From Christensenellales bacterium (GTDB taxonomy: Bacteria > Bacillota > Clostridia > Christensenellales > UBA1750), in assembly GCA_050309765.1 (NCBI GenBank), contig JBNRMU010000051.1:1-49816 (forward strand): a stretch of DNA of 49,816 nt, given 5' to 3'. The notes below the pieces were generated by a model. The model was not told the origin of the DNA, made no database searches, and was given only the letters and a program-made list of their open reading frames with translations. Positions 1 through 49,816 of this stretch are shown here, in pieces. Numbering within the stretch: position 1 is the first letter of the stretch; each line of letters opens with the position of its first letter. The translations under genes and the position numbers were made by a program.

Positions 1-137
1 TGGTAATGCCTGGCGACAACATCAAGATGACGATCAAGCTGATCACGCCTATCGCCATTGAGGAAGGCCTGCGCTTCGCTATCCGCGAGGGCGGCCGCAC
101 GGTTGGCTCCGGCGTTGTTTCCAAGGTCATCGAGTAA
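1..137 (+). CDS. tuf: Elongation factor Tu, 3' end only (5' part lies off-window)
   Basis: Frame starting at nt 3 reads [44 protein letters not shown] with TAA at 135-137, a canonical EF-Tu C-terminus. Confidence 0.9.
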
Positions 138-168
138 GCAAAACAAAAACGGCGTAAAGCCGCAAGCG

Positions 169-213
169 CAGGGTTCGGTTCCGCATGCAGGGACCGGACC
201 CTGTTTGTTTTAT
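169..213 (+). terminator. Rho-independent terminator after tuf
   Basis: 14-bp stem CAGGGTTCGGTTCC/GGGACCGGACCCTG (two G-U pairs), loop GCATGC, followed by TTTGTTTTATT. Confidence 0.7.
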
Positions 214-280
214 TGCGGCAAAATGCGCATCAGGCGCCAAAGCAAACGGGCACATTGTGCGCTGTCATACATTATTAAGC

Positions 281-309
281 TTGTATTTGGGCATTTTTTA
301 GCGTATGAT
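281..309 (+). promoter_or_regulatory. Candidate sigma-A promoter for dnaE (TTGTAT-N17-TATGAT)
   Basis: Hexamers read at 281-286 and 304-309 with a 17-nt spacer, about 37 nt upstream of the dnaE ATG. Confidence 0.4.
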
Positions 310-345
310 TTAGGTATTCACTATGGAATAGGGGAGGGAGAAGTC

Positions 346-3300
346 ATGGCGTTTACCCATCTGCATCTGCATACGGAATACTCTTTGCTGGACGGCGCCT
401 GCCGCCTCAAGCCCCTGGTGCAGCGCGCCAAGGAGATGGGCATGGACTCCCTGGCCATCACCGACCACGGCGTGATGTACGGCGTGGTGGATTTTTACTC
501 CCTCTGCAAGGAGGCCGGCATCCATCCGATCATCGGCTGCGAAGTGTATGTGGCCACCGGCTCCCGTTTCGACAAGGACAACAGCAACCGCGAAAGCGCC
601 CACTTGATCCTGCTGTGCGAAACGCAGGAGGGCTACCAGAACTTGATCAAGCTGGTATCCGCCGGCTTTACACAAGGGTACTACTACCGCCCCCGCATCG
701 ACCATGAGCTTTTGCAGCAGCATTCCAAGGGCCTGATCGCCCTTTCCGCCTGCCTGTCCGGCGAAATTCCCCGTCTGATCTTAAACGGTCAGATGGAGGA
801 CGCCAAGGCGCTTGCCCGCAAGTACGAGGCCATGATGGGCAAGGGCAACTACTACCTGGAATTGCAGGATCACGGCATCGAGGGCGAGCGCGAGGTCGCA
901 AGCGCCCTGATCCAGATGTCCAAAGAGCTGGACATTCCCCTGGTTGCCACCAACGATGTGCATTACATCCACCAGAAGGACGCCGCCGCGCAGGAAGTGC
1001 TCATGTGCATCCAGACGGGCAAGACCCTGCAGGACGAGAACCGCATGGGGATGAACACCGACCAGCTGTATTTAAAATCCGAGGAAGAGATGGCCGCCCT
1101 GTTCCCCGAGGCGCCGGAGGCCATCCAAAACGCGCACGACATCGCCATGCGCTGCAAGGTGGACTTTGAGTTCGGCCACTACCACCTGCCGGACTTTCCC
1201 GTGCCGGGCGGCGGCAGCCATGCCGAGTACCTGCGCAAGCTCTGTTTTGAGGGCGCGCAAAAGCGCTACGGCAAGGTGGAAGGCCAGGTGCTGGAACGCC
1301 TGGAATACGAGCTTTCCGTCATCGAAAAATGCGGCTATGTGGATTATTTCCTGATCGTTTGGGACTTTGTGCGCTTTGCCAAGGAGAACGATATCCCCGT
1401 GGGCCCCGGCCGCGGCAGCGGTGCCGGCTCCATCTGCGCCTATGCCCTGACCATTACCGACATAGACCCGCTCAAGTTCGACCTGATCTTTGAGCGCTTC
1501 CTGAACCCCGAGCGCATCTCCATGCCGGACTTCGACATCGACTTTTGCTATGAGCGCCGGCAGGAGGTCATCGATTACGTGGTGCGCCGCTACGGCGAGG
1601 ATCGGGTCTCCCAGATCATCACCTTCGGCACCATGGCTGCGCGCGCGGTGGTGCGCGACGTGGGCCGCGTGCTGGGCATGTCCTATGCCGAGGTGGACGA
1701 GATCGCCAAGCTCATCCCCATGCAGCTGGGCATGACGCTGGAAAAGGCGCTGGAGCTCTCACCCGAGCTGCGCGCCATGCGCGAGAACAACGATAACGTG
1801 CACAAGCTGTTTGAATATGCCCTGGTGCTGGAGGGCATGCCCCGCCATGCCAGCACCCATGCCGCCGGCGTGGTGATCGGCGCACAGCCTTTGACGGACT
1901 TTGTGCCCCTGCAGACCAACGACGACGTGATCACCACCCAGTTCCCCATGGGTACCATCGAAAAGTTGGGCCTGCTCAAGATGGATTTCCTTGGTCTCCG
2001 GACGCTGACCATCATCAAGGATGCCATCGAGATGATCAAGGCAGACGGCGGCCCGGCCCTGGACTTCAACGAGATCGGCTACGAGGATAAAGAAACCTAC
2101 GAGATGCTCGCCAAGGGCGAGACGGACGGCGTATTCCAGCTGGAATCTGCGGGCATGCGCCGCGTGATCACGGAGCTGGGCCCCGAATCCCTGGAGGATG
2201 TGTCTGCCGTGATCTCGCTGTACCGCCCCGGTCCCATGGAGTCCATCCCCCGCTATATCCGCGGCAAAAAGGACCCCTCCACCGTGACCTATCTTTCGCC
2301 CATACTGGAAAACGTGTTAAAGGTCACCTACGGCTGCATGGTCTACCAGGAGCAGGTCATGCAGATCGTGCGCGACATGGCGGGCTATTCCATGGGTCGC
2401 AGCGACCTGGTCCGCCGCGCCATGGCCAAGAAGAAAAAGGCCGAGATGGACAAGGAAAAAGCCATCTTTGTGGACGGCCTAGTGGAGGATGGCAAGATCA
2501 TCGTGCCCGGAGCGGTGCGGCTCGGCACCTCCAAGGAGGTCGCACTGGAGGTCTTCTCCCAGATGGAGAGCTTTGCCCAGTACGCCTTTAACAAGCCGCA
2601 CGCCGCCTCCTACGCGGTGGTGGCCTACCAGACAGCCTACCTTAAATGCCATTATCCCGTGCCCTTTATGGCGGCCTGCATGAACTCCGTCGTGGGTAAT
2701 TCGGACAAGCTGGCGAGCTTTGTGCAGTACTGTAAAAAGAGCGGCATCCCGATCCTGCCGCCGGATGTAAACAAGTCCTCCGCCAGGTTCACGGTGGAAA
2801 ACGGCAGCATACGCTATGGCATGGCGGCGCTCAAGGGTGCAGGCCTGGCCGTGGTGCAGGCAATCGAAAAGGAACGGCGCGAGCGCCCCTTCAGCGATCT
2901 GTATGATTTCTGCGACCGCATGGCGCCCAAGGGCATCAACAAAAAGTGCGTCGAGTGCCTTATCAAGGCGGGCGGCATGGACAGCCTGCCCGGCAACCGC
3001 GCCCAGAAGCTGAGCGTGTACGAGCGGGCGCTGGATGGCGCCGCGCAGCGCGGCAAAAACGCCCTGGACGGGCAGCTGAGCCTCTTCGGCGACCTGATGG
3101 GCCAGGTGCAGGTGGAGCGCGCGCCGCTACCCAGGCTCCCCGAGCACCCGAAAAGGCTGCTCCTGATGATGGAAAAGGAAATGACCGGCGTTTATATCAG
3201 CGGCCACCCTTTGGACGAATACGCCGATGTTTTGCACAGGCAGAGCCAGAACATCGGTCAGCTTATACAGTATGCCGAGGAAGAGGACTGGCAGAAGTAC

Positions 3301-3777
3301 GACGGCATCCCGGTACAGATCGGTGCCATCGTGCTGGAGTCGCGCCTTGTGACGACGCGCAACAACGCGCTGATGTGCTTCCTTCGCGTGGAGGACTTTT
3401 ACGCCAGCATCGAAGCGCTGGTATTCCCCAAGGTGTATGAGCGCCTGAGCCGCTATCTGCAGGTGGACAGCGCCGTGATGCTCAGCGGCAGGCTATCCCT
3501 GCGCGAGGAAAAGCCGCCCAGCATCGTGGTGGAAAACGCCGCCCCCCTGGCGGAGCTGCCGGCAAAGGAGCAGCGGCTGTATCTGCGCCTGAGCCGCGCC
3601 GCACAGATGCCGGAGGTCATGAAGCTGCTGGAAACCTCGCCCGGTTCCTGCCAGGTGCGCGTGGTCTCCGACGGCAAGACCTATGTCCTGCCCAAGGAAA
3701 AGTTCGTGGAACCGGATGCACAGCTGCTGGAACAGGCTGCGCAGCTGCTCGGCAGGGAAAATGTGCGCCTTGCGTAG
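346..3777 (+). CDS. dnaE: DNA polymerase III alpha subunit, DnaE type (1143 aa)
   Basis: ORF 58..3777. Start moved to ATG 346 (MAFTHLHLHTEYSLLDGA, typical PHP-domain N-terminus), preceded by GGGGAGGGAG at 331-340. Polymerase-core motifs are present throughout (e.g. GLLKMDFLGLRTLT, YRPGPM). Confidence 0.93.
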   Translation: MAFTHLHLHTEYSLLDGACRLKPLVQRAKEMGMDSLAITDHGVMYGVVDFYSLCKEAGIHPIIGCEVYVATGSRFDKDNSNRESAHLILLCETQEGYQNLIKLVSAGFTQGYYYRPRIDHELLQQHSKGLIALSACLSGEIPRLILNGQMEDAKALARKYEAMMGKGNYYLELQDHGIEGEREVASALIQMSKELDIPLVATNDVHYIHQKDAAAQEVLMCIQTGKTLQDENRMGMNTDQLYLKSEEEMAALFPEAPEAIQNAHDIAMRCKVDFEFGHYHLPDFPVPGGGSHAEYLRKLCFEGAQKRYGKVEGQVLERLEYELSVIEKCGYVDYFLIVWDFVRFAKENDIPVGPGRGSGAGSICAYALTITDIDPLKFDLIFERFLNPERISMPDFDIDFCYERRQEVIDYVVRRYGEDRVSQIITFGTMAARAVVRDVGRVLGMSYAEVDEIAKLIPMQLGMTLEKALELSPELRAMRENNDNVHKLFEYALVLEGMPRHASTHAAGVVIGAQPLTDFVPLQTNDDVITTQFPMGTIEKLGLLKMDFLGLRTLTIIKDAIEMIKADGGPALDFNEIGYEDKETYEMLAKGETDGVFQLESAGMRRVITELGPESLEDVSAVISLYRPGPMESIPRYIRGKKDPSTVTYLSPILENVLKVTYGCMVYQEQVMQIVRDMAGYSMGRSDLVRRAMAKKKKAEMDKEKAIFVDGLVEDGKIIVPGAVRLGTSKEVALEVFSQMESFAQYAFNKPHAASYAVVAYQTAYLKCHYPVPFMAACMNSVVGNSDKLASFVQYCKKSGIPILPPDVNKSSARFTVENGSIRYGMAALKGAGLAVVQAIEKERRERPFSDLYDFCDRMAPKGINKKCVECLIKAGGMDSLPGNRAQKLSVYERALDGAAQRGKNALDGQLSLFGDLMGQVQVERAPLPRLPEHPKRLLLMMEKEMTGVYISGHPLDEYADVLHRQSQNIGQLIQYAEEEDWQKYDGIPVQIGAIVLESRLVTTRNNALMCFLRVEDFYASIEALVFPKVYERLSRYLQVDSAVMLSGRLSLREEKPPSIVVENAAPLAELPAKEQRLYLRLSRAAQMPEVMKLLETSPGSCQVRVVSDGKTYVLPKEKFVEPDAQLLEQAAQLLGRENVRLA

Positions 3778-3815
3778 TCTTTTGCTGAAAAAGACGAAAA
3801 ATCAGGTGTTTTTGC

Positions 3816-3844
3816 TTGAACTACGCGCTATACTGTGCTATACT
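3816..3844 (+). promoter_or_regulatory. Candidate extended -10 promoter (TTGAAC-N17-TGcTATACT) upstream of the small ORF and pfkA
   Basis: TTGAAC at 3816-3821, 17-nt spacer ending in TGC, TATACT at 3839-3844. Confidence 0.45.
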
Positions 3845-3896
3845 TCCAAACAGCTTTAAACATCGCTCTTCTGCAGAGAAAGGGGCCTCAACTTCA

Positions 3897-4121
3897 GTGA
3901 AAGCCAAGGTGAACAGCCGCGGTGCCTGGATCGTGATCCATATGGTCCGGTCCCTGTCCGCTGCGAAGCGCCTGGAGCAGAAACTGGCGGAGGAGGGCAT
4001 CCTCGTGCGGCTGCAGCCCGTGTACAAGAACCGCGGCGATGAGGACAATTATTACGAAATACTGGTTTTATCTGCGGAATCTGAGGCAGCCAGAGAAACC
4101 ATTTTTGAAAAAGGATTTTAA
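3897..4121 (+). CDS. Small hypothetical protein (about 74 aa; start uncertain, GTG 3897 or ATG 3942)
   Basis: ORF 3816..4121. AGAAAGGGG lies about 11 nt before the in-frame GTG 3897. The C-terminal part (WIVIHMVRSLSAAKRLEQKLAEEGILVRLQPV...YYEILVLSAESEAARETIF) looks like a small beta-alpha-beta domain. No family confidently recognised. Confidence 0.4.
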   Translation: MKAKVNSRGAWIVIHMVRSLSAAKRLEQKLAEEGILVRLQPVYKNRGDEDNYYEILVLSAESEAARETIFEKGF

Positions 4122-4141
4122 AAGAGGAGATACAGATAGTT

Positions 4142-5164
4142 ATGGCTATGCATAGAATCGGAATCCTGACCAGCGGCGGCGACGCGCCCGGCATGAATGC
4201 CGCTGTGCGCGCGGTGGTGCGTTCCGCGCTGTATTACGATATGGAGATACTGGGCATTCGCGACGGCTATATGGGACTGAAGCGCGACGAGGTGGAAGAG
4301 CTTTACGCCGGTTCTGTCGGCGATATCATCCATCGCGGCGGCACATTCCTCGGCACCGCGCGCCTGCCCGGCTTTGCCACCGACAGGCAGCTGCGCGAGG
4401 ACTGCTACAAGACCCTGCGCAAATACGGCATTGAGGGCCTGGTCGTCTGCGGCGGCGACGGCTCCTTCAGGGGCTCGAGCGTCCTGTATAAGGAAAGCGG
4501 CATCCCCACCGTCGGCCTGCCCGGCACCATCGACAATGACCTTGGCTACACCGATTACACCATCGGCTTTGATACCGCCGTCAACACCTGCGTGGAAAAC
4601 ATCAACAAGCTGCGCGATACCATGGCCTCCCACGGCCGCGTGTCCGTGGTGGAGGTGATGGGCCGCAACTGCGGCGACATCGCCGTGCATTCCGGCATTG
4701 CCGCCGGCGCCGAGGCCATATTGGTGCCGGAGATGAAGCTCAGCGACAAGCAGTGGCTGGAGTATATCGTCAAAAAGCTGCGCGTGTCCTTTGGCCGCGG
4801 CAAGAAGTACGGCATCATTGTCATGGCCGAGGGCGTGACCTTCCAGTCCAAGAACGAGTATTTCACCGCCGATTACATCGCCGAATGGCTGAACCAGAAC
4901 GCCGACCTTGTCGGCCAGCGGGTGGACGCCCGCGGCTGTGTCATCGGCCATGTGCAGCGCGGCGGTTCTCCCACCGCGTCGGACCGCATCCTGGCTGCCC
5001 GCATGGGCGAGGCCGCGGTGGACGCCCTGCGTGAAGGCAAGGCCAACGTGTGCGTGGGCATCCGGCGCAACCGCATAGTGACCGTGGATACCGATAAGGC
5101 GACCTCGATGAAAAACCGCGTGGACAAGCATCTGATCACCCTTGCGGATATACTGGCAAGGTAA
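4142..5164 (+). CDS. pfkA: ATP-dependent 6-phosphofructokinase
   Basis: MAMHRIGILTSGGDAPGMNAAVRAVVR..., GGDGS, and PGTIDND motifs. AAGAGGAG RBS about 12 nt upstream. Confidence 0.92.
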   Translation: MAMHRIGILTSGGDAPGMNAAVRAVVRSALYYDMEILGIRDGYMGLKRDEVEELYAGSVGDIIHRGGTFLGTARLPGFATDRQLREDCYKTLRKYGIEGLVVCGGDGSFRGSSVLYKESGIPTVGLPGTIDNDLGYTDYTIGFDTAVNTCVENINKLRDTMASHGRVSVVEVMGRNCGDIAVHSGIAAGAEAILVPEMKLSDKQWLEYIVKKLRVSFGRGKKYGIIVMAEGVTFQSKNEYFTADYIAEWLNQNADLVGQRVDARGCVIGHVQRGGSPTASDRILAARMGEAAVDALREGKANVCVGIRRNRIVTVDTDKATSMKNRVDKHLITLADILAR

Positions 5165-5178
5165 ACGTTATTAAGTTC

Positions 5179-5217
5179 AAAGCCGCTGACAAAGAGCCTT
5201 TGCAGCGGCTTTTCTTT
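5179..5217 (+). terminator. Rho-independent terminator after pfkA
   Basis: AAAGCCGCTG...CAGCGGCTTT stem followed by TCTTT. Confidence 0.65.
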
Positions 5218-5286
5218 GGCAAAAAACAGAGCGGCAGTACCGGCGTGGATCCCGCCGAACAGATTAAAACGGCGCAAGAACAGCAT

Positions 5287-5323
5287 ACGCCGCCCCTTTG
5301 ATGCAAAGGGGCGGCGTTTTTAT
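5287..5323. terminator. Strong hairpin between convergent pfkA and the MBL gene (second or bidirectional terminator)
   Basis: ACGCCGCCCCTTTG-atg-CAAAGGGGCGGCGT followed by TTTTTATT on the + strand. The T-tract on the - strand is weaker. Confidence 0.6.
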
Positions 5324-5365
5324 TCAGAAACAATGTTTTTTCGGCACTGTTTGCCTGCGCGTTTG

Positions 5366-6370
5366 TCAGGGAACGATGTGCTCCTCGCCATCCTCCCACT
5401 TGACCGGGGGCAGCGTTACCTGCACGCGGGTATAGCCCTCGCCGTAGGCCATGCCCTTCTGGGCGGGGCGGTCGGGGAAGAGATGGAACTTGATGTCCAC
5501 ATATTCCAGATCGGGGTCGCCGCGCAGGTATTTGCGGTGCATCTCCAGCAGGTTTTCCACGATGCGGATGTCCTGGCTCATGACATCGATGATGCCGCAG
5601 TAAGTGCTGTGGCCGGTGAAGATCTGGCGGAACATGCCTGCGTTGTACTGGTCGATAAATCGCTTCAGGTAGCGGATGTGCGTGCTGGCAGCATGGGTGC
5701 GCGTGCCGTTGTTGAAGTTCACGCAGTCGCCGGTGAAGGCCATCTTTTCGCCCTCGTCGATGAAATACAGGTGTCCGGGGCTGTGTCCGGGCAGATTGTA
5801 GGCGGTCACCACGCGGCCGCCGCCAAGGTCGAAGCTGTCGCCTTCCTTGATATAGCAGATCTCGGTGTCCCGGTCGCCGCGGTTGATGCAGCTTTCGTCC
5901 GGGTTCCAGATCTCCCAGTGGCCGATGTGCAGGCGGTTGTTCCAGATAAACTCGTCCATGTTAAAGTCCGGCCTGGTGAGCCAGCGGATGCTGTCCATCC
6001 CGCCTTTATCGCCGCCGCCGTGGCCCATGGGACGGGCCATATCGACCTCGGTTTTGTTGATGTAGATGCGATCGAACTGGTGCATCATGCCGATGTGGTC
6101 GGGATGGGCGTGGGTGATGACCACGTCATAGGGCTTGTCGGTCAGGCTTTCGACGATCTCGCGGAAGTTGCAGTAGCCCATGCCCGCGTCCACAACCAGG
6201 GCGCGGTCCTTGCCCTCGAGCACATACATGTTGTTGCAGCCGAACTCGTTTACGCACCAGGTCTTGTAGCCGACCTCTGTGAGGATCGGCGTTTTCAGGC
6301 CGCCGTTTGCAGGGCGCTGGGCGGCATCGTTTTTGGGCGCATTAAAGTCCTTGTAGGTGTTGCCAGCCAT
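5366..6370 (-). CDS. MBL-fold metallo-hydrolase (334 aa)
   Basis: ORF 5366..6397. Start moved to MAGNTYKDF, preceded by GAGGAGG. HxHxDH motif present (VVITHAHPDHIG). Substrate unknown. Confidence 0.75.
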   Translation of the reverse strand: MAGNTYKDFNAPKNDAAQRPANGGLKTPILTEVGYKTWCVNEFGCNNMYVLEGKDRALVVDAGMGYCNFREIVESLTDKPYDVVITHAHPDHIGMMHQFDRIYINKTEVDMARPMGHGGGDKGGMDSIRWLTRPDFNMDEFIWNNRLHIGHWEIWNPDESCINRGDRDTEICYIKEGDSFDLGGGRVVTAYNLPGHSPGHLYFIDEGEKMAFTGDCVNFNNGTRTHAASTHIRYLKRFIDQYNAGMFRQIFTGHSTYCGIIDVMSQDIRIVENLLEMHRKYLRGDPDLEYVDIKFHLFPDRPAQKGMAYGEGYTRVQVTLPPVKWEDGEEHIVP

Positions 6371-6412
6371 AGAAGGGTTCCTCCTCGTTACAATCAATTA
6401 CTTGCGTATACA

Positions 6413-6442
6413 ATTATATCACAGGGATTTTCCATTGCGCAA
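6413..6442 (-). promoter_or_regulatory. Candidate extended -10 promoter for the MBL gene (TTGCGC-N18-TGaTATAAT)
   Basis: Read on the coding strand in the mirror copy at 43375-43404. Confidence 0.45.
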
Positions 6443-6472
6443 TGGGTTTGTTTGCATTAATTTGCGGGCCAT

Positions 6473-6520
6473 GGAAAAAGAAGGGGCCTGACAAAAGCTA
6501 AAAGCTTTTGTCAGGCCCCT
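6473..6520 (-). terminator. Rho-independent terminator after the C11 peptidase gene
   Basis: Perfect 17-bp stem GGGGCCTGACAAAAGCT/AGCTTTTGTCAGGCCCC followed (on the - strand) by TTCTTTTTCC. Confidence 0.8.
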
Positions 6521-6540
6521 GGCGTTGTTTGTAGGTTGCT

Positions 6541-9018
6541 TTACGGGATTGCCGGCGTCCAGTAGCTTTGGCAATAGATGTCGGTGAACAGATACATGGC
6601 GCTGGCCCGCTCGCTGTCGATATAAACGTTGCTGATCACAAGATCCTCGCTGTATTTCAGCGGCGCATCGGTCAGGCGGTAGCTGTCCTGATATTGGCCG
6701 TCGTAGCTGTAATAATCGCAGAGGAAGTAGATTTCGTCGCCCTCTACAAGCTCCAGATCGCTCTTGGAGACGGTCTCCGTTTCGCCGTTCACATAGGCGC
6801 TGGTGGCGCCGGCGATGTAGCCGTAGGGGTTGTCGCTGTCAAAGACCAAGAGCAGGTCGGCACGGCTGCCGTTCAGCAGCACGGGCACGCGGCCGGTGAT
6901 GGTGTATTTGTCGCCGTCCTGCACGGTGTCCACGTGGTAGTAGGCTACGGGCTGGTCGTCGATGGCCAGCCAGGTGCCGTCAAAGGCGCCCAGCAGCGTG
7001 CCGTCGTTCGTGAACTCAAACACATTGTCAAGGCCCAGATCGATATAGCCCTCGCCGTCGTCATAGAAGACGTTCAGCTCCAGATCGTCCACTAGGGACC
7101 ACTGTTCTTCGGTCAGAAGCATCTGGTAAACGCCGTCGCGCTGTGTCCACACCAGTGCGGCGGGATCGAAGCGGTTCTCGGAAAGGTACTGGGTGGCGCT
7201 GTCCACGTCCAGATTGCGGCCGAGGAAGTTCGCGCTGGAACCGGAGCCGCCAAAGCCGGACAGGCCGGACACATCGCCGCCGAGCAAGCTGCCGAGCAGG
7301 CTGCCGATGTCCATGCCGGGCAGGCTCTGACCGGAGGAACCGAGCAGCGTGGGCAGGGGGGACGCCGCGCCGCCGGACACGGCCTGGCCGCCCACTTCCA
7401 TGCTGGCAAACTGCTGGATGCAACGGGTGTATTCGCTGTCCAGGCCGATGGCGTCAAAGGCGGAAACGGCGCTATCCACGCGCGAGACCTTCTGGTAGGG
7501 GAAGTAGATGGCAAGCCCGTAGGCGTCGGTCATGTTGGCAGAGGTTTTGTTGTACTTGACCGCGCCCAATATGGCCTGCGCCAGCGCGCGGCTCTGCTCG
7601 GTATCCAGATTGTGGGCCAGATGCACCAGGTCCACCTGGTCGGTCTTGCTGGAGGTGGCAAACTCGCGGGTGCTGCTGCGCGCTTTGGAAACGGTCTTGT
7701 ACTCGCTTTGCTGCAACAGATCGGAGAGATTCAGGGCAAATTCGCGGAACTTGGATGGCACGGTCTTTTCCAGCTCGGCCAGGTCCACCACGGATAGCGT
7801 GGCCTTCTGGCCGCTGCAGCGCTGGCTGCATACGCCCACAAAGTCGTCCACGATGGCCTTGCCGACCTCTACCGTGGGCATGGAGGGGTTCTGGGCAAAG
7901 GCGCTCAGCCAGTTGGTGTAGTACCAGCCGGCGCCGGGCTCCGTTTCCTCGGAGGCGACGAGATAGTCCGCATAGGGCGCCAAGGTGAGGGCGTTTTCCA
8001 GCGTGCCCATCAGGCAGGTGTCAAAGCCGATAAAATCAAAGGTCGTGCCCGCGGCAGAGAGCGCCTCGTCGATCTTTTTGAGGGTCATGGAGCCGCTGCG
8101 GGGGTTCTTTTCGTCGTAGCCGTAGCCGCTGATGGCACCGCCGCCGTGGTCCCAGAAGATGAGCTCGTTGCGGTTGGCGGGGAAGTTTTCCGTGCAGAAG
8201 TTGATGAAATGGGTCAGCGTCTTGGGGTCGGTCATGACGGCGTTGCCGTCGTTTTTGACCAGGCAGCGCAAACCGCCGTTTTCGACCTTGTAGATCTGGT
8301 TGGCAGAGCTGGAGACGACGTTGTTCTTCCACTGTTTGCTGCCGCCGGTATAGACGAGCACGTTCACATGGTCGTTCAGCTTGGCGGAGACCATCTCCAT
8401 CAGGTCGGCGGAAGCCGCGCCGCTTCTGGATTCCAGATCGGCGCCGCAGATGTATACCATGATGGTTACCTGGTCCTGGCCGTTACCCAGAATCTGGGTG
8501 CGTTTTTCGCGGGCGGAGGCATCCACGGAGGTATTGAGCTTGCCCGTGTTGGGCGTTTCGCTCCAGCCGGTGGAAACGTTGCCCGCGCCGCTGCCGAGCA
8601 GGCTGGCAAAGTCAAAGCCCTGCGCGCCGTAGGCACTTGCGCTCGTCAAACCGCTGGAGGTGCTTTGCGAGGCGCCGCCTTGACTGCTGCTGTAGGGTTG
8701 CTGTTGCTGCTGCACATAGGCGCTGCTGGGCGCGGTGACGGGTTCGGAACCGCCGCCGCCGAGCAGACCGCCCAAGGCCCCGCCGCCGCCCAGCAGCAGC
8801 ACTGCTGCGGCGATGAGGATCTTCATCAGCGAACCGCCGCCGGAGGCGCGGGTCTGTCCGGAGCTTTTGCCGGAGGACGGCGGACGCCGTCCGGAATAAT
8901 TGCCGCCGGAACCGCTGCCGTGGCCGACGGGACCACTGCCAAGCCCGCTGCCGTGTTTTTGGATGGGCTTACCGGTGCCGGTAACGTTTTTTTGTCTGCC
9001 CAAAGGTCTGTTTTGCAT
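6541..9018 (-). CDS. Membrane-anchored clostripain-family (peptidase C11) cysteine protease, 825 aa
   Basis: ORF 6541..9144. Start moved to MQNRPLGRQ, preceded by GGGAGGGAAA. Catalytic-type motifs IFWDHGGGAISGYGYD (His) and FDFIGFDTCLMG (Cys). One TM helix (ILIAAAVLLLGGGGALGGLL) follows a Gly/Ser-rich N-terminus. Confidence 0.75.
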   Translation of the reverse strand: MQNRPLGRQKNVTGTGKPIQKHGSGLGSGPVGHGSGSGGNYSGRRPPSSGKSSGQTRASGGGSLMKILIAAAVLLLGGGGALGGLLGGGGSEPVTAPSSAYVQQQQQPYSSSQGGASQSTSSGLTSASAYGAQGFDFASLLGSGAGNVSTGWSETPNTGKLNTSVDASAREKRTQILGNGQDQVTIMVYICGADLESRSGAASADLMEMVSAKLNDHVNVLVYTGGSKQWKNNVVSSSANQIYKVENGGLRCLVKNDGNAVMTDPKTLTHFINFCTENFPANRNELIFWDHGGGAISGYGYDEKNPRSGSMTLKKIDEALSAAGTTFDFIGFDTCLMGTLENALTLAPYADYLVASEETEPGAGWYYTNWLSAFAQNPSMPTVEVGKAIVDDFVGVCSQRCSGQKATLSVVDLAELEKTVPSKFREFALNLSDLLQQSEYKTVSKARSSTREFATSSKTDQVDLVHLAHNLDTEQSRALAQAILGAVKYNKTSANMTDAYGLAIYFPYQKVSRVDSAVSAFDAIGLDSEYTRCIQQFASMEVGGQAVSGGAASPLPTLLGSSGQSLPGMDIGSLLGSLLGGDVSGLSGFGGSGSSANFLGRNLDVDSATQYLSENRFDPAALVWTQRDGVYQMLLTEEQWSLVDDLELNVFYDDGEGYIDLGLDNVFEFTNDGTLLGAFDGTWLAIDDQPVAYYHVDTVQDGDKYTITGRVPVLLNGSRADLLLVFDSDNPYGYIAGATSAYVNGETETVSKSDLELVEGDEIYFLCDYYSYDGQYQDSYRLTDAPLKYSEDLVISNVYIDSERASAMYLFTDIYCQSYWTPAIP

Positions 9019-9149
9019 TCGTTTCCCTCCCAGTGAAGAGACGTATTTTGCTGAACGCGGCCGCATGAAAGACATGCGGTGTAAATGCTCTAATGAAAGC
9101 CGCCGCGCAGGCGGTGATCCGGCGCAGGCACGGCTCTTGCACACCCTTT

Positions 9150-9179
9150 ATTGTAGCAATTTGCGACCGCAATCGTCAA
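9150..9179 (-). promoter_or_regulatory. Candidate extended -10 promoter for the C11 peptidase gene (TTGACG-N18-TGcTACAAT)
   Basis: Read on the coding strand in the mirror copy at 40638-40667. Leaves a leader of about 130 nt. Confidence 0.5.
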
Positions 9180-9218
9180 TATGCAAGGCACAAAACAAAG
9201 GCGCGCAGCGCTTATTTG

Positions 9219-9250
9219 CAAAAACAAAACCGGCGTCCAAGGGACGCCGG
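9219..9250 (-). terminator. Rho-independent terminator after the SDR gene
   Basis: CCGGCGTCC-ctt-GGACGCCGG followed by TTTTGTTTTTG on the coding strand. Confidence 0.8.
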
Positions 9251-9267
9251 AATCGTTCGCATGCGCT

Positions 9268-11234: not shown

Positions 11235-11380
11235 AAGATACCTCCGTGCTATATAAATAAACTGGAATAGGAATGAGATCAGGCTATGCGTATAAAAGAT
11301 AAACAGGAAGCCATCCCAAATGGTAAACATATCAAAAATTCGACGATTTGTCTCAATTAACCCGTATCGTTCTATGCCAA

Positions 11381-11518: not shown

Positions 11519-11529
11519 GCGTATCGCTT

Positions 11530-40549: not shown

Positions 40550-40566
40550 AGCGCATGCGAACGATT

Positions 40567-40598
40567 CCGGCGTCCCTTGGACGCCGGTTTTGTTTTTG
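40567..40598 (+). terminator. Terminator after the SDR gene (mirror copy)
   Basis: Exact mirror of 9219..9250. Confidence 0.8.
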
Positions 40599-40637
40599 CA
40601 AATAAGCGCTGCGCGCCTTTGTTTTGTGCCTTGCATA

Positions 40638-40667
40638 TTGACGATTGCGGTCGCAAATTGCTACAAT
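40638..40667 (+). promoter_or_regulatory. Promoter of the C11 peptidase gene (mirror copy)
   Basis: TTGACG 40638-40643, TACAAT 40662-40667. Confidence 0.5.
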
Positions 40668-40798
40668 AAAGGGTGTGCAAGAGCCGTGCCTGCGCCGGAT
40701 CACCGCCTGCGCGGCGGCTTTCATTAGAGCATTTACACCGCATGTCTTTCATGCGGCCGCGTTCAGCAAAATACGTCTCTTCACTGGGAGGGAAACGA

Positions 40799-43276: not shown

Positions 43277-43296
43277 AGCAACCTACAAACAACGCC

Positions 43297-43344
43297 AGGG
43301 GCCTGACAAAAGCTTTTAGCTTTTGTCAGGCCCCTTCTTTTTCC
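43297..43344 (+). terminator. Terminator after the C11 gene (mirror copy)
   Basis: Exact mirror of 6473..6520. Confidence 0.8.
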
Positions 43345-43374
43345 ATGGCCCGCAAATTAATGCAAACAAACCCA

Positions 43375-43404
43375 TTGCGCAATGGAAAATCCCTGTGATA
43401 TAAT
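43375..43404 (+). promoter_or_regulatory. Promoter of the MBL gene (mirror copy)
   Basis: TTGCGC 43375-43380, TGATATAAT 43396-43404. Confidence 0.45.
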
Positions 43405-43446
43405 TGTATACGCAAGTAATTGATTGTAACGAGGAGGAACCCTTCT

Positions 43447-44451
43447 ATGGCTGGCAACACCTACAAGGACTTTAATGCGCCCAAAAACGATGCCGCCCAG
43501 CGCCCTGCAAACGGCGGCCTGAAAACGCCGATCCTCACAGAGGTCGGCTACAAGACCTGGTGCGTAAACGAGTTCGGCTGCAACAACATGTATGTGCTCG
43601 AGGGCAAGGACCGCGCCCTGGTTGTGGACGCGGGCATGGGCTACTGCAACTTCCGCGAGATCGTCGAAAGCCTGACCGACAAGCCCTATGACGTGGTCAT
43701 CACCCACGCCCATCCCGACCACATCGGCATGATGCACCAGTTCGATCGCATCTACATCAACAAAACCGAGGTCGATATGGCCCGTCCCATGGGCCACGGC
43801 GGCGGCGATAAAGGCGGGATGGACAGCATCCGCTGGCTCACCAGGCCGGACTTTAACATGGACGAGTTTATCTGGAACAACCGCCTGCACATCGGCCACT
43901 GGGAGATCTGGAACCCGGACGAAAGCTGCATCAACCGCGGCGACCGGGACACCGAGATCTGCTATATCAAGGAAGGCGACAGCTTCGACCTTGGCGGCGG
44001 CCGCGTGGTGACCGCCTACAATCTGCCCGGACACAGCCCCGGACACCTGTATTTCATCGACGAGGGCGAAAAGATGGCCTTCACCGGCGACTGCGTGAAC
44101 TTCAACAACGGCACGCGCACCCATGCTGCCAGCACGCACATCCGCTACCTGAAGCGATTTATCGACCAGTACAACGCAGGCATGTTCCGCCAGATCTTCA
44201 CCGGCCACAGCACTTACTGCGGCATCATCGATGTCATGAGCCAGGACATCCGCATCGTGGAAAACCTGCTGGAGATGCACCGCAAATACCTGCGCGGCGA
44301 CCCCGATCTGGAATATGTGGACATCAAGTTCCATCTCTTCCCCGACCGCCCCGCCCAGAAGGGCATGGCCTACGGCGAGGGCTATACCCGCGTGCAGGTA
44401 ACGCTGCCCCCGGTCAAGTGGGAGGATGGCGAGGAGCACATCGTTCCCTGA
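43447..44451 (+). CDS. MBL-fold metallo-hydrolase (mirror copy)
   Basis: Exact mirror of 5366..6370. Confidence 0.75.
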   Translation: MAGNTYKDFNAPKNDAAQRPANGGLKTPILTEVGYKTWCVNEFGCNNMYVLEGKDRALVVDAGMGYCNFREIVESLTDKPYDVVITHAHPDHIGMMHQFDRIYINKTEVDMARPMGHGGGDKGGMDSIRWLTRPDFNMDEFIWNNRLHIGHWEIWNPDESCINRGDRDTEICYIKEGDSFDLGGGRVVTAYNLPGHSPGHLYFIDEGEKMAFTGDCVNFNNGTRTHAASTHIRYLKRFIDQYNAGMFRQIFTGHSTYCGIIDVMSQDIRIVENLLEMHRKYLRGDPDLEYVDIKFHLFPDRPAQKGMAYGEGYTRVQVTLPPVKWEDGEEHIVP

Positions 44452-44493
44452 CAAACGCGCAGGCAAACAGTGCCGAAAAAACATTGTTTCTGA

Positions 44494-44530
44494 ATAAAAA
44501 CGCCGCCCCTTTGCATCAAAGGGGCGGCGT
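44494..44530. terminator. Hairpin terminator between convergent genes (mirror copy)
   Basis: Exact mirror of 5287..5323. Confidence 0.6.
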
Positions 44531-44599
44531 ATGCTGTTCTTGCGCCGTTTTAATCTGTTCGGCGGGATCCACGCCGGTACTGCCGCTCTGTTTTTTGCC

Positions 44600-44638
44600 A
44601 AAGAAAAGCCGCTGCAAAGGCTCTTTGTCAGCGGCTTT
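44600..44638 (-). terminator. pfkA terminator (mirror copy)
   Basis: Exact mirror of 5179..5217. Confidence 0.65.
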
Positions 44639-44652
44639 GAACTTAATAACGT

Positions 44653-45675
44653 TTACCTTGCCAGTATATCCGCAAGGGTGATCAGATGCTTGTCCACGCG
44701 GTTTTTCATCGAGGTCGCCTTATCGGTATCCACGGTCACTATGCGGTTGCGCCGGATGCCCACGCACACGTTGGCCTTGCCTTCACGCAGGGCGTCCACC
44801 GCGGCCTCGCCCATGCGGGCAGCCAGGATGCGGTCCGACGCGGTGGGAGAACCGCCGCGCTGCACATGGCCGATGACACAGCCGCGGGCGTCCACCCGCT
44901 GGCCGACAAGGTCGGCGTTCTGGTTCAGCCATTCGGCGATGTAATCGGCGGTGAAATACTCGTTCTTGGACTGGAAGGTCACGCCCTCGGCCATGACAAT
45001 GATGCCGTACTTCTTGCCGCGGCCAAAGGACACGCGCAGCTTTTTGACGATATACTCCAGCCACTGCTTGTCGCTGAGCTTCATCTCCGGCACCAATATG
45101 GCCTCGGCGCCGGCGGCAATGCCGGAATGCACGGCGATGTCGCCGCAGTTGCGGCCCATCACCTCCACCACGGACACGCGGCCGTGGGAGGCCATGGTAT
45201 CGCGCAGCTTGTTGATGTTTTCCACGCAGGTGTTGACGGCGGTATCAAAGCCGATGGTGTAATCGGTGTAGCCAAGGTCATTGTCGATGGTGCCGGGCAG
45301 GCCGACGGTGGGGATGCCGCTTTCCTTATACAGGACGCTCGAGCCCCTGAAGGAGCCGTCGCCGCCGCAGACGACCAGGCCCTCAATGCCGTATTTGCGC
45401 AGGGTCTTGTAGCAGTCCTCGCGCAGCTGCCTGTCGGTGGCAAAGCCGGGCAGGCGCGCGGTGCCGAGGAATGTGCCGCCGCGATGGATGATATCGCCGA
45501 CAGAACCGGCGTAAAGCTCTTCCACCTCGTCGCGCTTCAGTCCCATATAGCCGTCGCGAATGCCCAGTATCTCCATATCGTAATACAGCGCGGAACGCAC
45601 CACCGCGCGCACAGCGGCATTCATGCCGGGCGCGTCGCCGCCGCTGGTCAGGATTCCGATTCTATGCATAGCCAT
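44653..45675 (-). CDS. pfkA: 6-phosphofructokinase (mirror copy)
   Basis: Exact mirror of 4142..5164. Confidence 0.92.
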   Translation of the reverse strand: MAMHRIGILTSGGDAPGMNAAVRAVVRSALYYDMEILGIRDGYMGLKRDEVEELYAGSVGDIIHRGGTFLGTARLPGFATDRQLREDCYKTLRKYGIEGLVVCGGDGSFRGSSVLYKESGIPTVGLPGTIDNDLGYTDYTIGFDTAVNTCVENINKLRDTMASHGRVSVVEVMGRNCGDIAVHSGIAAGAEAILVPEMKLSDKQWLEYIVKKLRVSFGRGKKYGIIVMAEGVTFQSKNEYFTADYIAEWLNQNADLVGQRVDARGCVIGHVQRGGSPTASDRILAARMGEAAVDALREGKANVCVGIRRNRIVTVDTDKATSMKNRVDKHLITLADILAR

Positions 45676-45695
45676 AACTATCTGTATCTCCTCTT

Positions 45696-45920
45696 TTAAA
45701 ATCCTTTTTCAAAAATGGTTTCTCTGGCTGCCTCAGATTCCGCAGATAAAACCAGTATTTCGTAATAATTGTCCTCATCGCCGCGGTTCTTGTACACGGG
45801 CTGCAGCCGCACGAGGATGCCCTCCTCCGCCAGTTTCTGCTCCAGGCGCTTCGCAGCGGACAGGGACCGGACCATATGGATCACGATCCAGGCACCGCGG
45901 CTGTTCACCTTGGCTTTCAC
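45696..45920 (-). CDS. Small hypothetical protein (mirror copy)
   Basis: Exact mirror of 3897..4121. Confidence 0.4.
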   Translation of the reverse strand: MKAKVNSRGAWIVIHMVRSLSAAKRLEQKLAEEGILVRLQPVYKNRGDEDNYYEILVLSAESEAARETIFEKGF

Positions 45921-45972
45921 TGAAGTTGAGGCCCCTTTCTCTGCAGAAGAGCGATGTTTAAAGCTGTTTGGA

Positions 45973-46001
45973 AGTATAGCACAGTATAGCGCGTAGTTCA
46001 A
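45973..46001 (-). promoter_or_regulatory. Candidate promoter (mirror copy of 3816..3844)
   Basis: Exact mirror. Confidence 0.45.
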
Positions 46002-46039
46002 GCAAAAACACCTGATTTTTCGTCTTTTTCAGCAAAAGA

Positions 46040-49000
46040 CTACGCAAGGCGCACATTTTCCCTGCCGAGCAGCTGCGCAGCCTGTTCCAGCAGCTGTGCA
46101 TCCGGTTCCACGAACTTTTCCTTGGGCAGGACATAGGTCTTGCCGTCGGAGACCACGCGCACCTGGCAGGAACCGGGCGAGGTTTCCAGCAGCTTCATGA
46201 CCTCCGGCATCTGTGCGGCGCGGCTCAGGCGCAGATACAGCCGCTGCTCCTTTGCCGGCAGCTCCGCCAGGGGGGCGGCGTTTTCCACCACGATGCTGGG
46301 CGGCTTTTCCTCGCGCAGGGATAGCCTGCCGCTGAGCATCACGGCGCTGTCCACCTGCAGATAGCGGCTCAGGCGCTCATACACCTTGGGGAATACCAGC
46401 GCTTCGATGCTGGCGTAAAAGTCCTCCACGCGAAGGAAGCACATCAGCGCGTTGTTGCGCGTCGTCACAAGGCGCGACTCCAGCACGATGGCACCGATCT
46501 GTACCGGGATGCCGTCGTACTTCTGCCAGTCCTCTTCCTCGGCATACTGTATAAGCTGACCGATGTTCTGGCTCTGCCTGTGCAAAACATCGGCGTATTC
46601 GTCCAAAGGGTGGCCGCTGATATAAACGCCGGTCATTTCCTTTTCCATCATCAGGAGCAGCCTTTTCGGGTGCTCGGGGAGCCTGGGTAGCGGCGCGCGC
46701 TCCACCTGCACCTGGCCCATCAGGTCGCCGAAGAGGCTCAGCTGCCCGTCCAGGGCGTTTTTGCCGCGCTGCGCGGCGCCATCCAGCGCCCGCTCGTACA
46801 CGCTCAGCTTCTGGGCGCGGTTGCCGGGCAGGCTGTCCATGCCGCCCGCCTTGATAAGGCACTCGACGCACTTTTTGTTGATGCCCTTGGGCGCCATGCG
46901 GTCGCAGAAATCATACAGATCGCTGAAGGGGCGCTCGCGCCGTTCCTTTTCGATTGCCTGCACCACGGCCAGGCCTGCACCCTTGAGCGCCGCCATGCCA
47001 TAGCGTATGCTGCCGTTTTCCACCGTGAACCTGGCGGAGGACTTGTTTACATCCGGCGGCAGGATCGGGATGCCGCTCTTTTTACAGTACTGCACAAAGC
47101 TCGCCAGCTTGTCCGAATTACCCACGACGGAGTTCATGCAGGCCGCCATAAAGGGCACGGGATAATGGCATTTAAGGTAGGCTGTCTGGTAGGCCACCAC
47201 CGCGTAGGAGGCGGCGTGCGGCTTGTTAAAGGCGTACTGGGCAAAGCTCTCCATCTGGGAGAAGACCTCCAGTGCGACCTCCTTGGAGGTGCCGAGCCGC
47301 ACCGCTCCGGGCACGATGATCTTGCCATCCTCCACTAGGCCGTCCACAAAGATGGCTTTTTCCTTGTCCATCTCGGCCTTTTTCTTCTTGGCCATGGCGC
47401 GGCGGACCAGGTCGCTGCGACCCATGGAATAGCCCGCCATGTCGCGCACGATCTGCATGACCTGCTCCTGGTAGACCATGCAGCCGTAGGTGACCTTTAA
47501 CACGTTTTCCAGTATGGGCGAAAGATAGGTCACGGTGGAGGGGTCCTTTTTGCCGCGGATATAGCGGGGGATGGACTCCATGGGACCGGGGCGGTACAGC
47601 GAGATCACGGCAGACACATCCTCCAGGGATTCGGGGCCCAGCTCCGTGATCACGCGGCGCATGCCCGCAGATTCCAGCTGGAATACGCCGTCCGTCTCGC
47701 CCTTGGCGAGCATCTCGTAGGTTTCTTTATCCTCGTAGCCGATCTCGTTGAAGTCCAGGGCCGGGCCGCCGTCTGCCTTGATCATCTCGATGGCATCCTT
47801 GATGATGGTCAGCGTCCGGAGACCAAGGAAATCCATCTTGAGCAGGCCCAACTTTTCGATGGTACCCATGGGGAACTGGGTGGTGATCACGTCGTCGTTG
47901 GTCTGCAGGGGCACAAAGTCCGTCAAAGGCTGTGCGCCGATCACCACGCCGGCGGCATGGGTGCTGGCATGGCGGGGCATGCCCTCCAGCACCAGGGCAT
48001 ATTCAAACAGCTTGTGCACGTTATCGTTGTTCTCGCGCATGGCGCGCAGCTCGGGTGAGAGCTCCAGCGCCTTTTCCAGCGTCATGCCCAGCTGCATGGG
48101 GATGAGCTTGGCGATCTCGTCCACCTCGGCATAGGACATGCCCAGCACGCGGCCCACGTCGCGCACCACCGCGCGCGCAGCCATGGTGCCGAAGGTGATG
48201 ATCTGGGAGACCCGATCCTCGCCGTAGCGGCGCACCACGTAATCGATGACCTCCTGCCGGCGCTCATAGCAAAAGTCGATGTCGAAGTCCGGCATGGAGA
48301 TGCGCTCGGGGTTCAGGAAGCGCTCAAAGATCAGGTCGAACTTGAGCGGGTCTATGTCGGTAATGGTCAGGGCATAGGCGCAGATGGAGCCGGCACCGCT
48401 GCCGCGGCCGGGGCCCACGGGGATATCGTTCTCCTTGGCAAAGCGCACAAAGTCCCAAACGATCAGGAAATAATCCACATAGCCGCATTTTTCGATGACG
48501 GAAAGCTCGTATTCCAGGCGTTCCAGCACCTGGCCTTCCACCTTGCCGTAGCGCTTTTGCGCGCCCTCAAAACAGAGCTTGCGCAGGTACTCGGCATGGC
48601 TGCCGCCGCCCGGCACGGGAAAGTCCGGCAGGTGGTAGTGGCCGAACTCAAAGTCCACCTTGCAGCGCATGGCGATGTCGTGCGCGTTTTGGATGGCCTC
48701 CGGCGCCTCGGGGAACAGGGCGGCCATCTCTTCCTCGGATTTTAAATACAGCTGGTCGGTGTTCATCCCCATGCGGTTCTCGTCCTGCAGGGTCTTGCCC
48801 GTCTGGATGCACATGAGCACTTCCTGCGCGGCGGCGTCCTTCTGGTGGATGTAATGCACATCGTTGGTGGCAACCAGGGGAATGTCCAGCTCTTTGGACA
48901 TCTGGATCAGGGCGCTTGCGACCTCGCGCTCGCCCTCGATGCCGTGATCCTGCAATTCCAGGTAGTAGTTGCCCTTGCCCATCATGGCCTCGTACTTGCG

Positions 49001-49471
49001 GGCAAGCGCCTTGGCGTCCTCCATCTGACCGTTTAAGATCAGACGGGGAATTTCGCCGGACAGGCAGGCGGAAAGGGCGATCAGGCCCTTGGAATGCTGC
49101 TGCAAAAGCTCATGGTCGATGCGGGGGCGGTAGTAGTACCCTTGTGTAAAGCCGGCGGATACCAGCTTGATCAAGTTCTGGTAGCCCTCCTGCGTTTCGC
49201 ACAGCAGGATCAAGTGGGCGCTTTCGCGGTTGCTGTTGTCCTTGTCGAAACGGGAGCCGGTGGCCACATACACTTCGCAGCCGATGATCGGATGGATGCC
49301 GGCCTCCTTGCAGAGGGAGTAAAAATCCACCACGCCGTACATCACGCCGTGGTCGGTGATGGCCAGGGAGTCCATGCCCATCTCCTTGGCGCGCTGCACC
49401 AGGGGCTTGAGGCGGCAGGCGCCGTCCAGCAAAGAGTATTCCGTATGCAGATGCAGATGGGTAAACGCCAT
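46040..49471 (-). CDS. dnaE: DNA polymerase III alpha subunit (mirror copy)
   Basis: Exact mirror of 346..3777. Confidence 0.93.
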   Translation of the reverse strand: MAFTHLHLHTEYSLLDGACRLKPLVQRAKEMGMDSLAITDHGVMYGVVDFYSLCKEAGIHPIIGCEVYVATGSRFDKDNSNRESAHLILLCETQEGYQNLIKLVSAGFTQGYYYRPRIDHELLQQHSKGLIALSACLSGEIPRLILNGQMEDAKALARKYEAMMGKGNYYLELQDHGIEGEREVASALIQMSKELDIPLVATNDVHYIHQKDAAAQEVLMCIQTGKTLQDENRMGMNTDQLYLKSEEEMAALFPEAPEAIQNAHDIAMRCKVDFEFGHYHLPDFPVPGGGSHAEYLRKLCFEGAQKRYGKVEGQVLERLEYELSVIEKCGYVDYFLIVWDFVRFAKENDIPVGPGRGSGAGSICAYALTITDIDPLKFDLIFERFLNPERISMPDFDIDFCYERRQEVIDYVVRRYGEDRVSQIITFGTMAARAVVRDVGRVLGMSYAEVDEIAKLIPMQLGMTLEKALELSPELRAMRENNDNVHKLFEYALVLEGMPRHASTHAAGVVIGAQPLTDFVPLQTNDDVITTQFPMGTIEKLGLLKMDFLGLRTLTIIKDAIEMIKADGGPALDFNEIGYEDKETYEMLAKGETDGVFQLESAGMRRVITELGPESLEDVSAVISLYRPGPMESIPRYIRGKKDPSTVTYLSPILENVLKVTYGCMVYQEQVMQIVRDMAGYSMGRSDLVRRAMAKKKKAEMDKEKAIFVDGLVEDGKIIVPGAVRLGTSKEVALEVFSQMESFAQYAFNKPHAASYAVVAYQTAYLKCHYPVPFMAACMNSVVGNSDKLASFVQYCKKSGIPILPPDVNKSSARFTVENGSIRYGMAALKGAGLAVVQAIEKERRERPFSDLYDFCDRMAPKGINKKCVECLIKAGGMDSLPGNRAQKLSVYERALDGAAQRGKNALDGQLSLFGDLMGQVQVERAPLPRLPEHPKRLLLMMEKEMTGVYISGHPLDEYADVLHRQSQNIGQLIQYAEEEDWQKYDGIPVQIGAIVLESRLVTTRNNALMCFLRVEDFYASIEALVFPKVYERLSRYLQVDSAVMLSGRLSLREEKPPSIVVENAAPLAELPAKEQRLYLRLSRAAQMPEVMKLLETSPGSCQVRVVSDGKTYVLPKEKFVEPDAQLLEQAAQLLGRENVRLA

Positions 49472-49507
49472 GACTTCTCCCTCCCCTATTCCATAGTGAA
49501 TACCTAA

Positions 49508-49536
49508 ATCATACGCTAAAAAATGCCCAAATACAA
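49508..49536 (-). promoter_or_regulatory. Candidate dnaE promoter (mirror copy)
   Basis: Exact mirror of 281..309. Confidence 0.4.
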
Positions 49537-49603
49537 GCTTAATAATGTATGACAGCGCACAATGTGCCCGTTTGCTTTGGCGCCTGATGCGCATTTTGCC
49601 GCA

Positions 49604-49648
49604 ATAAAACAAACAGGGTCCGGTCCCTGCATGCGGAACCGAACCCTG
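49604..49648 (-). terminator. tuf terminator (mirror copy)
   Basis: Exact mirror of 169..213. Confidence 0.7.
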
Positions 49649-49679
49649 CGCTTGCGGCTTTACGCCGTTTTTGTTTTGC

Positions 49680-49816
49680 TTACTCGATGACCTTGGAAAC
49701 AACGCCGGAGCCAACCGTGCGGCCGCCCTCGCGGATAGCGAAGCGCAGGCCTTCCTCAATGGCGATAGGCGTGATCAGCTTGATCGTCATCTTGATGTTG
49801 TCGCCAGGCATTACCA
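49680..49816 (-). CDS. tuf: Elongation factor Tu 3' end (mirror copy)
   Basis: Exact mirror of 1..137. Confidence 0.9.

Follow-up and report, generated by a model that had tools for sequence, protein, structure and literature searches.

Palindromes that span a complete contig are known from earlier assembly work. Eighty-one were described in SPAdes assemblies of M. bovis (PMC9455707) and others in single-cell assemblies (bioRxiv 10.1101/2023.06.06.543983), and in both studies they were judged to be assembly errors. Rahman and Medvedev (2022, PMC9528984) have shown how they can arise in the assembly graph: a k-mer with a self-reverse-complementary (k-1)-suffix makes an inverted loop and, when this is the sole exit, the resulting maximal unitig is palindromic. 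Among assemblers, SPAdes and MEGAHIT leave unitigs of this kind whole, ABySS splits them and the behaviour of minia is mixed (PMC9528984). Inverted chimeras are also known from library preparation. With multiple displacement amplification (MDA) more than 85% of chimeras are inverted and more than 70% of the junctions are primed at 2-21 nucleotides (nt) of complementarity (Lasken and Stockwell 2007, PMC1855051), while T4 polymerase end repair at short reverse-complementary regions yields artefact chimeric fragments (PMC8458033). In addition, inverted repeats and GGC motifs are triggers, in Illumina data, of sequence-specific errors, variable coverage and gaps in assemblies (PMC3141275). Here we describe contig JBNRMU010000051.1 of a Christensenellales bacterium (NCBI assembly GCA_050309765.1), a stretch of 49,816 nt analysed over its full length and referred to below as the window. 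It is a perfect palindrome that turns within the start of a ylbJ-like gene, at the centre of a 14-bp palindrome native to the genome. The second arm is very probably absent from the organism, the contig being a palindromic unitig that arose as a fold-back artefact of sequencing or assembly.

Over its full 49,816 positions the window matches its reverse complement without a single mismatch. The base counts are balanced (G=C=14,662; A=T=10,246), and the composition and skew profiles are symmetric about the centre, as self-complementarity demands. The arms abut at 24908|24909, the axis, with no spacer or unique loop (the sequence reads ...GTTGCGGCCGGC|GCCGGCCGCAAC...), and the fold-back junction in the window is ...CTTATGCTGTTGCGGCCGGC|GCCGGCCGCAACAGCATAAG... 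This bears out the first-pass annotation, made from the letters of the window, which had described a perfect 2 x 24,908-bp palindrome without a spacer; the self-alignment that it proposed as a check gives full identity over 49,816 nt and no central loop. Identity over arms of 24,908 bp cannot be explained by chance. The proteins of the window are recorded on a single NCBI contig of 49,816 nt, and the palindrome is therefore the entire deposited record.

Assemblies of the same species were recovered by an exact-protein look-up. This yielded four contigs from three other samples, 97-99.8% identical to the window. In the JGI contig 3300001682|SAHD_10002615 (28,310 nt), window positions 55..24915 are matched once, in a colinear manner and at 99.7-99.8% identity. 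The contig then runs on for 3,450 nt past the match with sequence that has no counterpart in the window. (This record is a scaffold and includes a run of about 110 N at about positions 608-717, which separates rsmD from its neighbouring gene some 2.7 kb past the axis point.) Two Logan contigs, SRR31093300_16688 (97.1%) and SRR29910021_499098 (99.4%), are also single copy over their overlaps with the window and read past the axis. The alignments of all three axis-crossing contigs to the window end at 24915, 7 nt beyond the axis and exactly at the end of the 14-bp palindrome. The fourth contig, from ENA ERZ926431 (98.6%), is single copy as well; it covers window positions 18680-22224 (the pta-ackA region) and stops short of the axis.

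More distant assemblies give the same picture. Ten contigs of a related species (about 80% nucleotide identity), including those of the NCBI metagenome-assembled genomes GCA_944383925.1 and GCA_964315815.1, carry the gene order rsmD-coaD-x-ylbJ | patatin-...-pta-ackA-yceD-rpmF, and none of the ten contains an inverted self-match. ENA ULXP01082885.1, a short contig from another related taxon, also has patatin and ylbJ as a divergent pair, and the YlbJ-like protein that it encodes runs on past the point equivalent to the axis. The fold-back junction is absent from the three same-species contigs that cross the axis and from all 11 related contigs. Since the other assemblies are single copy and read past the axis wherever they reach it, the real genome holds this segment once and does not turn there. 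A fold-back artefact at a locus that is truly single copy had been proposed in the first-pass annotation, and every other assembly retrieved supports it. The accompanying estimate that the real locus measures about 24.9 kb does not hold, as the sequence goes on for at least 3.4 kb in the JGI contig. A palindromic unitig is self-complementary over its full length without a spacer, occupies the whole record and is contradicted by other assemblies that are single copy and continue past the axis; each of these features was found here.

Pattern searches were also carried out. An axis-adjacent pattern of the arm gave no match in a genome collection (28 nt) or a metagenome collection (24 nt), a result that is uninformative as the species is absent from both even in un-folded form. 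The pattern of the fold-back junction had no exact match in viral contigs. A scan of the GTDB representative genomes with the YlbJ-like protein returned only a relative of 31% identity, and the species is therefore not closely represented in that set.

The axis falls inside coding sequence, 74 nt from the ATG of the ylbJ-like gene at 24835, which is preceded by a ribosome binding site (GGGGGAGA) at 24823-24829. The complete gene, with the same start, is found at 2431-3531(-) of the JGI contig and encodes a protein of 366 amino acids (aa). This protein matches TIGR02871 (YlbJ, sporulation membrane proteins) with an E value of 1e-43, below the equivalog cutoff, and is present in exactly this form on four contigs. 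In the native order it is followed downstream by a gene for a 149-aa protein, coaD and rsmD. In the window, the fold-back instead joins the first codons to their own mirror image in an open reading frame (ORF) of 30 codons; an exact look-up of the 30-aa product finds nothing on record.

The short palindrome at the axis (GGCCGGC|GCCGGCC) is not a product of the fold-back. It occupies the same place in the three un-folded same-species contigs, which then read ATGCAGGGCGCGCGGGAGG... The native sequence across the axis point is ...CTTATGCTGTTGCGGCCGGCGCCGGCC-ATGCAGGGCGCGCGGGAGGGGCTGC... and the native continuation GGCCGGCGCCGGCC-ATGCAGGGCGCGCGGG. The inverted junction thus lies on a short reverse-complementary sequence that is native according to three un-folded contigs, as in fold-back chimeras. 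A short inverted repeat at the axis is shared by in vivo and in vitro mechanisms and does not discriminate between them.

Six perfect palindromes of at least 14 bp without a spacer occur in the 28.3-kb JGI reference, against about two expected from shuffled sequences. Only the axis palindrome is 100% GC (guanine plus cytosine), and its self-duplex is the most stable of the six (nearest-neighbour dG37 of -24.1 kcal/mol compared with -15.3 to -20.4 for the others). The probability that a random break would land on the centre of such a palindrome is about 2e-4, and we therefore conclude that the fold-back was seeded or directed by the 14-bp palindrome. The surroundings are also unusual: a 60-nt segment with the axis at its centre ranks at the 96th percentile of the contig for GC content, and five GGC motifs lie within a 60-nt stretch around it, inside and beside the inverted repeat. 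The peptide context LLRPAPAMQG is also found in a YlbJ-like homologue of only 58% identity, and the R-P-A-P-A amino-acid motif, possibly together with the palindrome itself, is therefore conserved beyond the species. The more distant homologue in ENA ULXP01082885.1 has PDSSMQG instead and no palindrome.

To account for these observations we infer chimeric molecules, loss of the true path and a particular behaviour of the assembler. A strand ending at or near the palindrome would fold on itself, or pair with a second copy, through the 14-bp all-GC duplex. A proofreading polymerase (an end-repair polymerase, that of a polymerase chain reaction or phi29) would then trim the 3' tail and extend. 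This would produce molecules, and hence reads, composed of the arm, the palindrome and the reverse-complemented arm with no spacer, and the k-mers of such reads would form an inverted loop in the de Bruijn graph. The loop would be the only exit of its node because the true continuation would be missing or have been pruned at this GC-rich and GGC-rich inverted repeat; high GC and GGC motifs at an inverted repeat would make the site prone to such a loss. An assembler that pushes through loops (of the SPAdes or MEGAHIT type) would walk back along the same unitig as far as a branch in tuf. In a computational variant, the 14-nt overlap would let the assembler join a dead-end tip to the reverse complement of itself, with the same verdict on the contig. 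An overlap of about 10 nt is enough for certain gap-closing steps. The native palindrome is rejected as the sole source of an inverted loop: following the logic of PMC9528984, 14 bp would be enough only at k = 15.

The outer ends of the window are an ordinary assembly break in tuf. The JGI contig ends at window position 55, only 54 nt from the end of the window, and both ends lie within the last 140 nt of the gene (window 1-137; JGI 1-83). This points to a graph branch in the conserved, possibly two-copy tuf as the cause of both breaks, and the two ends of the window would share one base because the walk back stops at this branch. The first-pass annotation had noted that both ends stop at the same base in tuf, which is correct, and had taken this as one sign of a single molecule or read folded back on itself; the break of an independent contig 54 nt away speaks instead for an ordinary assembly break.

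Several points weigh against a fold-back artefact. The status of this particular junction is deduced from other assemblies and not observed in the source reads. A palindrome of 14 bp does not suffice by itself for an inverted loop when k has its usual value of 21 or more, and chimeric reads or a short-overlap join must therefore be assumed. The contig would look no different if the junction had arisen in vivo at a short palindrome. Finally, the protein collection contains no remainder of the ylbJ-like gene from the NCBI source. This is compatible with a coverage gap or an unbinned contig and, equally, with genuine loss.

A rival explanation is that the window records a real and very recent inverted duplication, in which a 3' end or nascent strand snapped back in vivo at the 14-bp palindrome and was extended into a giant palindrome. 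Similar events have been described as symmetric tandem inversion duplication (sTID) in Salmonella, as origin-dependent inverted-repeat amplification (ODIRA) and as palindromic amplification in yeast. The position of the junction, exactly on a short native inverted repeat, would suit such an event, as these repeats are a known seed (PMC4689423, which cites Kugelberg 2010); so would the lack of the NCBI-source ylbJ remainder. We nevertheless regard an in vivo origin of this kind as very unlikely. None of the three same-species contigs that cross the axis has the junction, nor does any of the 11 related contigs, and the duplication would destroy a conserved gene of a sporulation family. SbcCD processes long perfect palindromes in bacteria, and junctions of this kind in Salmonella are remodelled. 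The centre of a spacerless 25-kb palindrome should therefore be cleaved or deleted, yet it is untouched. Furthermore, the original continuation survives in a tandem inversion duplication, so that a branch and not a clean turn would be expected at the axis, and the palindrome fills the whole contig, as in the reported artefacts. In its specific form, in which a broken or stalled end snapped back in the ylbJ-like gene and the resulting perfect inverted duplication of core genes, at least 2 x 24.9 kb in size, was caught before SbcCD-type remodelling, this explanation is slightly less probable again. If true, it would represent a natural bacterial palindromic amplification in an environmental or gut Clostridia genome.

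Two further explanations concern the way in which a molecule is read. A single long molecule may have been sequenced down one strand and up the other, either because a SMRTbell hairpin adaptor was missed or because a nanopore read continued onto the complementary strand where the fragment ended. In nanopore ligation libraries, chimeric reads of the inverted-repeat type account for 0.18-7.33% of all reads (PMC13141652), and a total of about 50 kb is within the nanopore read range. However, there is neither adaptor nor foreign sequence at the axis, and a fragment end would be expected at a random site and not at the centre of a native palindrome (the probability of about 2e-4 given above). The absence of mismatches between two passes over 24,908 bp is also unlike a raw single read and implies a consensus or a graph path, and the outer ends coincide with the tuf break that an independent contig also shows. 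We give this explanation even less credence than a duplication in vivo. We favour self-priming or template switching seeded by the palindrome, with a palindromic unitig as the outcome. Of the artefact routes listed in the first-pass annotation, the missed hairpin adaptor and fragment-end read-through fit poorly with the lack of an adaptor, the perfect identity of the arms and the native palindrome. Reading around the covalently closed hairpin telomere of a linear replicon would likewise give a perfect palindrome without a spacer, and the first-pass annotation had mentioned this alternative. The contigs that cross the axis point refute it; three of them are from the same species, with a continuation of at least 3.4 kb. 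The axis moreover lies within coding sequence, related species retain synteny across it, and the arm carries core chromosomal genes with no protelomerase or recombinase family among them (25 kb examined). The probability that the axis is such a telomere is close to nil. The palindrome-seeded fold-back artefact is thus the explanation adopted in what follows.

The arm itself is an ordinary Clostridia chromosome segment of roughly 59% GC (Table 1). Several of the gene families were read by Pfam on the near-identical JGI contig, and NCBIfam profiles were also used. The EF-Tu C-terminus, dnaE, pfkA, rpmF, ackA and pta named in the first-pass annotation are all real, with profile matches to each.

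Table 1. Features of the window. Where no mirror position is listed, the second copy of a feature at x lies at 49817-x.
Feature	Position	Strand	Mirror copy	Basis and remarks
Arm 1	1..24908			Genuine single-copy chromosomal segment; the true genome goes on past 24915
Arm 2	24909..49816			Exact reverse complement of arm 1 (x to 49817-x); very probably an artefactual copy
tuf (EF-Tu), last 44 codons and stop	3..137	+	49680-49814 (-)	NCBIfam EF-Tu profile positions 351-394 of 394
dnaE (DNA polymerase III alpha)	346..3777	+		NF005298, 1664 bits, above cutoff; Pfam PHP and DNA_pol3_alpha on the 99.7%-identical contig
Small ORF	between dnaE and pfkA
pfkA (6-phosphofructokinase)	4142..5164	+		PF00365
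Metallo-beta-lactamase-fold protein	5366..6370	-		PF00753
Peptidase C11 (clostripain-like)	6541..9018	-		PF03415; TIGR02806 match weak
SDR	9268-10059	-		PF00106
BioF/Kbl-family alpha-oxoamine synthase	10056-11234	-		PF00155; 4-nt overlap with the downstream SDR
DUF4340 protein	11530-12966	-		Pfam
ABC permease	13105-14046	-		Pfam; sugar-type ABC transporter
ABC permease	14065-15027	-		Pfam; sugar-type ABC transporter
Solute-binding protein	15183-16943	-		Pfam; same sugar-type ABC transporter
rpmF	17787-17978	-		PF01783
yceD	18132-18647	-		PF02620
ackA	18745-19938	-		PF00871
pta	19962-20951	-		PF01515
HIGH_NTase1 nucleotidyltransferase	21111-22253	+		Pfam
RidA	22311-22679	+		Pfam
HEAT-repeat protein	22760-23401	+		Pfam
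176-aa protein	23461-23991	-		Matches no Pfam or NCBIfam family
Patatin-like phospholipase	23988-24776	-		PF01734; NF007623 RssA-like, E 2e-44; divergent from ylbJ
ylbJ-like gene, first 24 2/3 codons (MQRLFRAMLPFAISGFLLLMLLRP...)	24835..24908	+	24909-24982 (-)	Cut by the axis at codon 25
Chimeric 30-codon ORF (MQRLFRAMLPFAISGFLLLMLLRPAPAATA, then stop)	24835..24927	+	24890-24982 (-)	Made by the fold-back; not a real gene
Perfect 14-bp palindrome GGCCGGC|GCCGGCC	24902..24915			Centre at the axis; 100% GC; codes for R-P-A-P-A (YlbJ-like protein, codons 23-27)

The arm was also scanned for RNA genes. It contains no tRNA or tmRNA gene and no Rfam family, and the axis is therefore not explained by an RNA element. 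No hallmarks of phages, plasmids, linear replicons or recombinases were found among the arm genes. An exact look-up of the patatin protein of the window returned nothing on record.

A number of the genes deserve comment. The C11 peptidase has a long Gly/Ser/Gln-rich low-complexity region and a stretch resembling a membrane anchor at its N-terminus. The gene as called on the near-identical contig (825 aa) has a later start than the longest ORF (867 aa, 6541-9144 (-)). Among NCBIfam profiles, the alpha-oxoamine synthase best matches serine palmitoyltransferase (NF047600), with a score of 518 bits that does not reach the cutoff of 640. The synthase and SDR pair (9268-11234 (-), mirror 38583-40549 (+)) could constitute a sphingoid-base-type lipid operon in a Clostridia genome. 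Two differences from the related species of about 80% identity were observed. The genes for the 176-aa, HEAT-repeat and RidA proteins (window 22311-23991), between patatin and HIGH_NTase1, are missing from that species (compare about 7400-7650 of its ten contigs). Synteny also stops after rpmF: at this place the window carries the sugar ABC transporter, and the other species has genes for an ABC-F protein and ClpB.

Many long antisense ORFs lie opposite real genes, for example 4118-5131(-), which faces pfkA, 5216-6460(+), 15420-17021(+) and 13096-14007(+). These are by-products of high GC and not genes. Two other ORFs, 23988-25715(-) and 24102-25829(+), span the axis merely because the frame upstream of patatin stays open.

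The consequences for users of the deposited sequence are practical. The contig doubles 22 genes, including dnaE, rpmF, pfkA, pta and ackA, and adds 24.9 kb to the genome size. The first-pass annotation had warned that gene counts would be doubled if the window were taken at face value, and all 22 arm genes do appear twice. Estimates of single-copy-marker duplication (contamination) and counts of paralogues and of pangenome members are inflated. The real neighbours (the ylbJ-like gene, coaD and rsmD) are hidden and a false ORF of 30 codons is created. As a general diagnostic, a palindrome that fills a whole contig, has its axis on a short native palindrome and is read through by other assemblies indicates a fold-back artefact. 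The remedy for such contigs is to retain one arm.

As biology, the locus is unremarkable, a part of a Clostridia chromosome present in single copy, and the contig is one more artefact of a known type. It resembles the 'lonely inverted loop' unitigs and the reported palindromic contigs in being self-complementary throughout without a spacer, in its even length, in ends that lie at the same genomic position and in its mirror pairs of genes; like the M. bovis cases, it comes from a GC-rich genome. It departs from the lonely-inverted-loop theory (PMC9528984), in which the loops result from genuine genomic palindromes, as the native palindrome of 14 bp is here shorter than k-1 for the usual k. With the MDA and end-repair chimeras it shares an inverted junction at short complementarity, the 14 nt being within the range of 2-21 nt. 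Most MDA chimeras carry a deletion between the inverted segments; there is none here because the seed is itself a palindrome.

In sTID (Salmonella, Kugelberg 2010) and ODIRA (PMC4689423), too, the exact midpoint of a large palindromic junction is occupied by a short inverted repeat. Those structures are nevertheless triplications with two junctions, in which the original continuation is kept and the centres are quickly remodelled. In the present case, a single junction is seen, which is pristine, occurs in no other sample and belongs to a palindrome filling the complete contig. The detail that this contig adds to the known palindromic contigs is its turning point, which is a native 14-bp GC palindrome.

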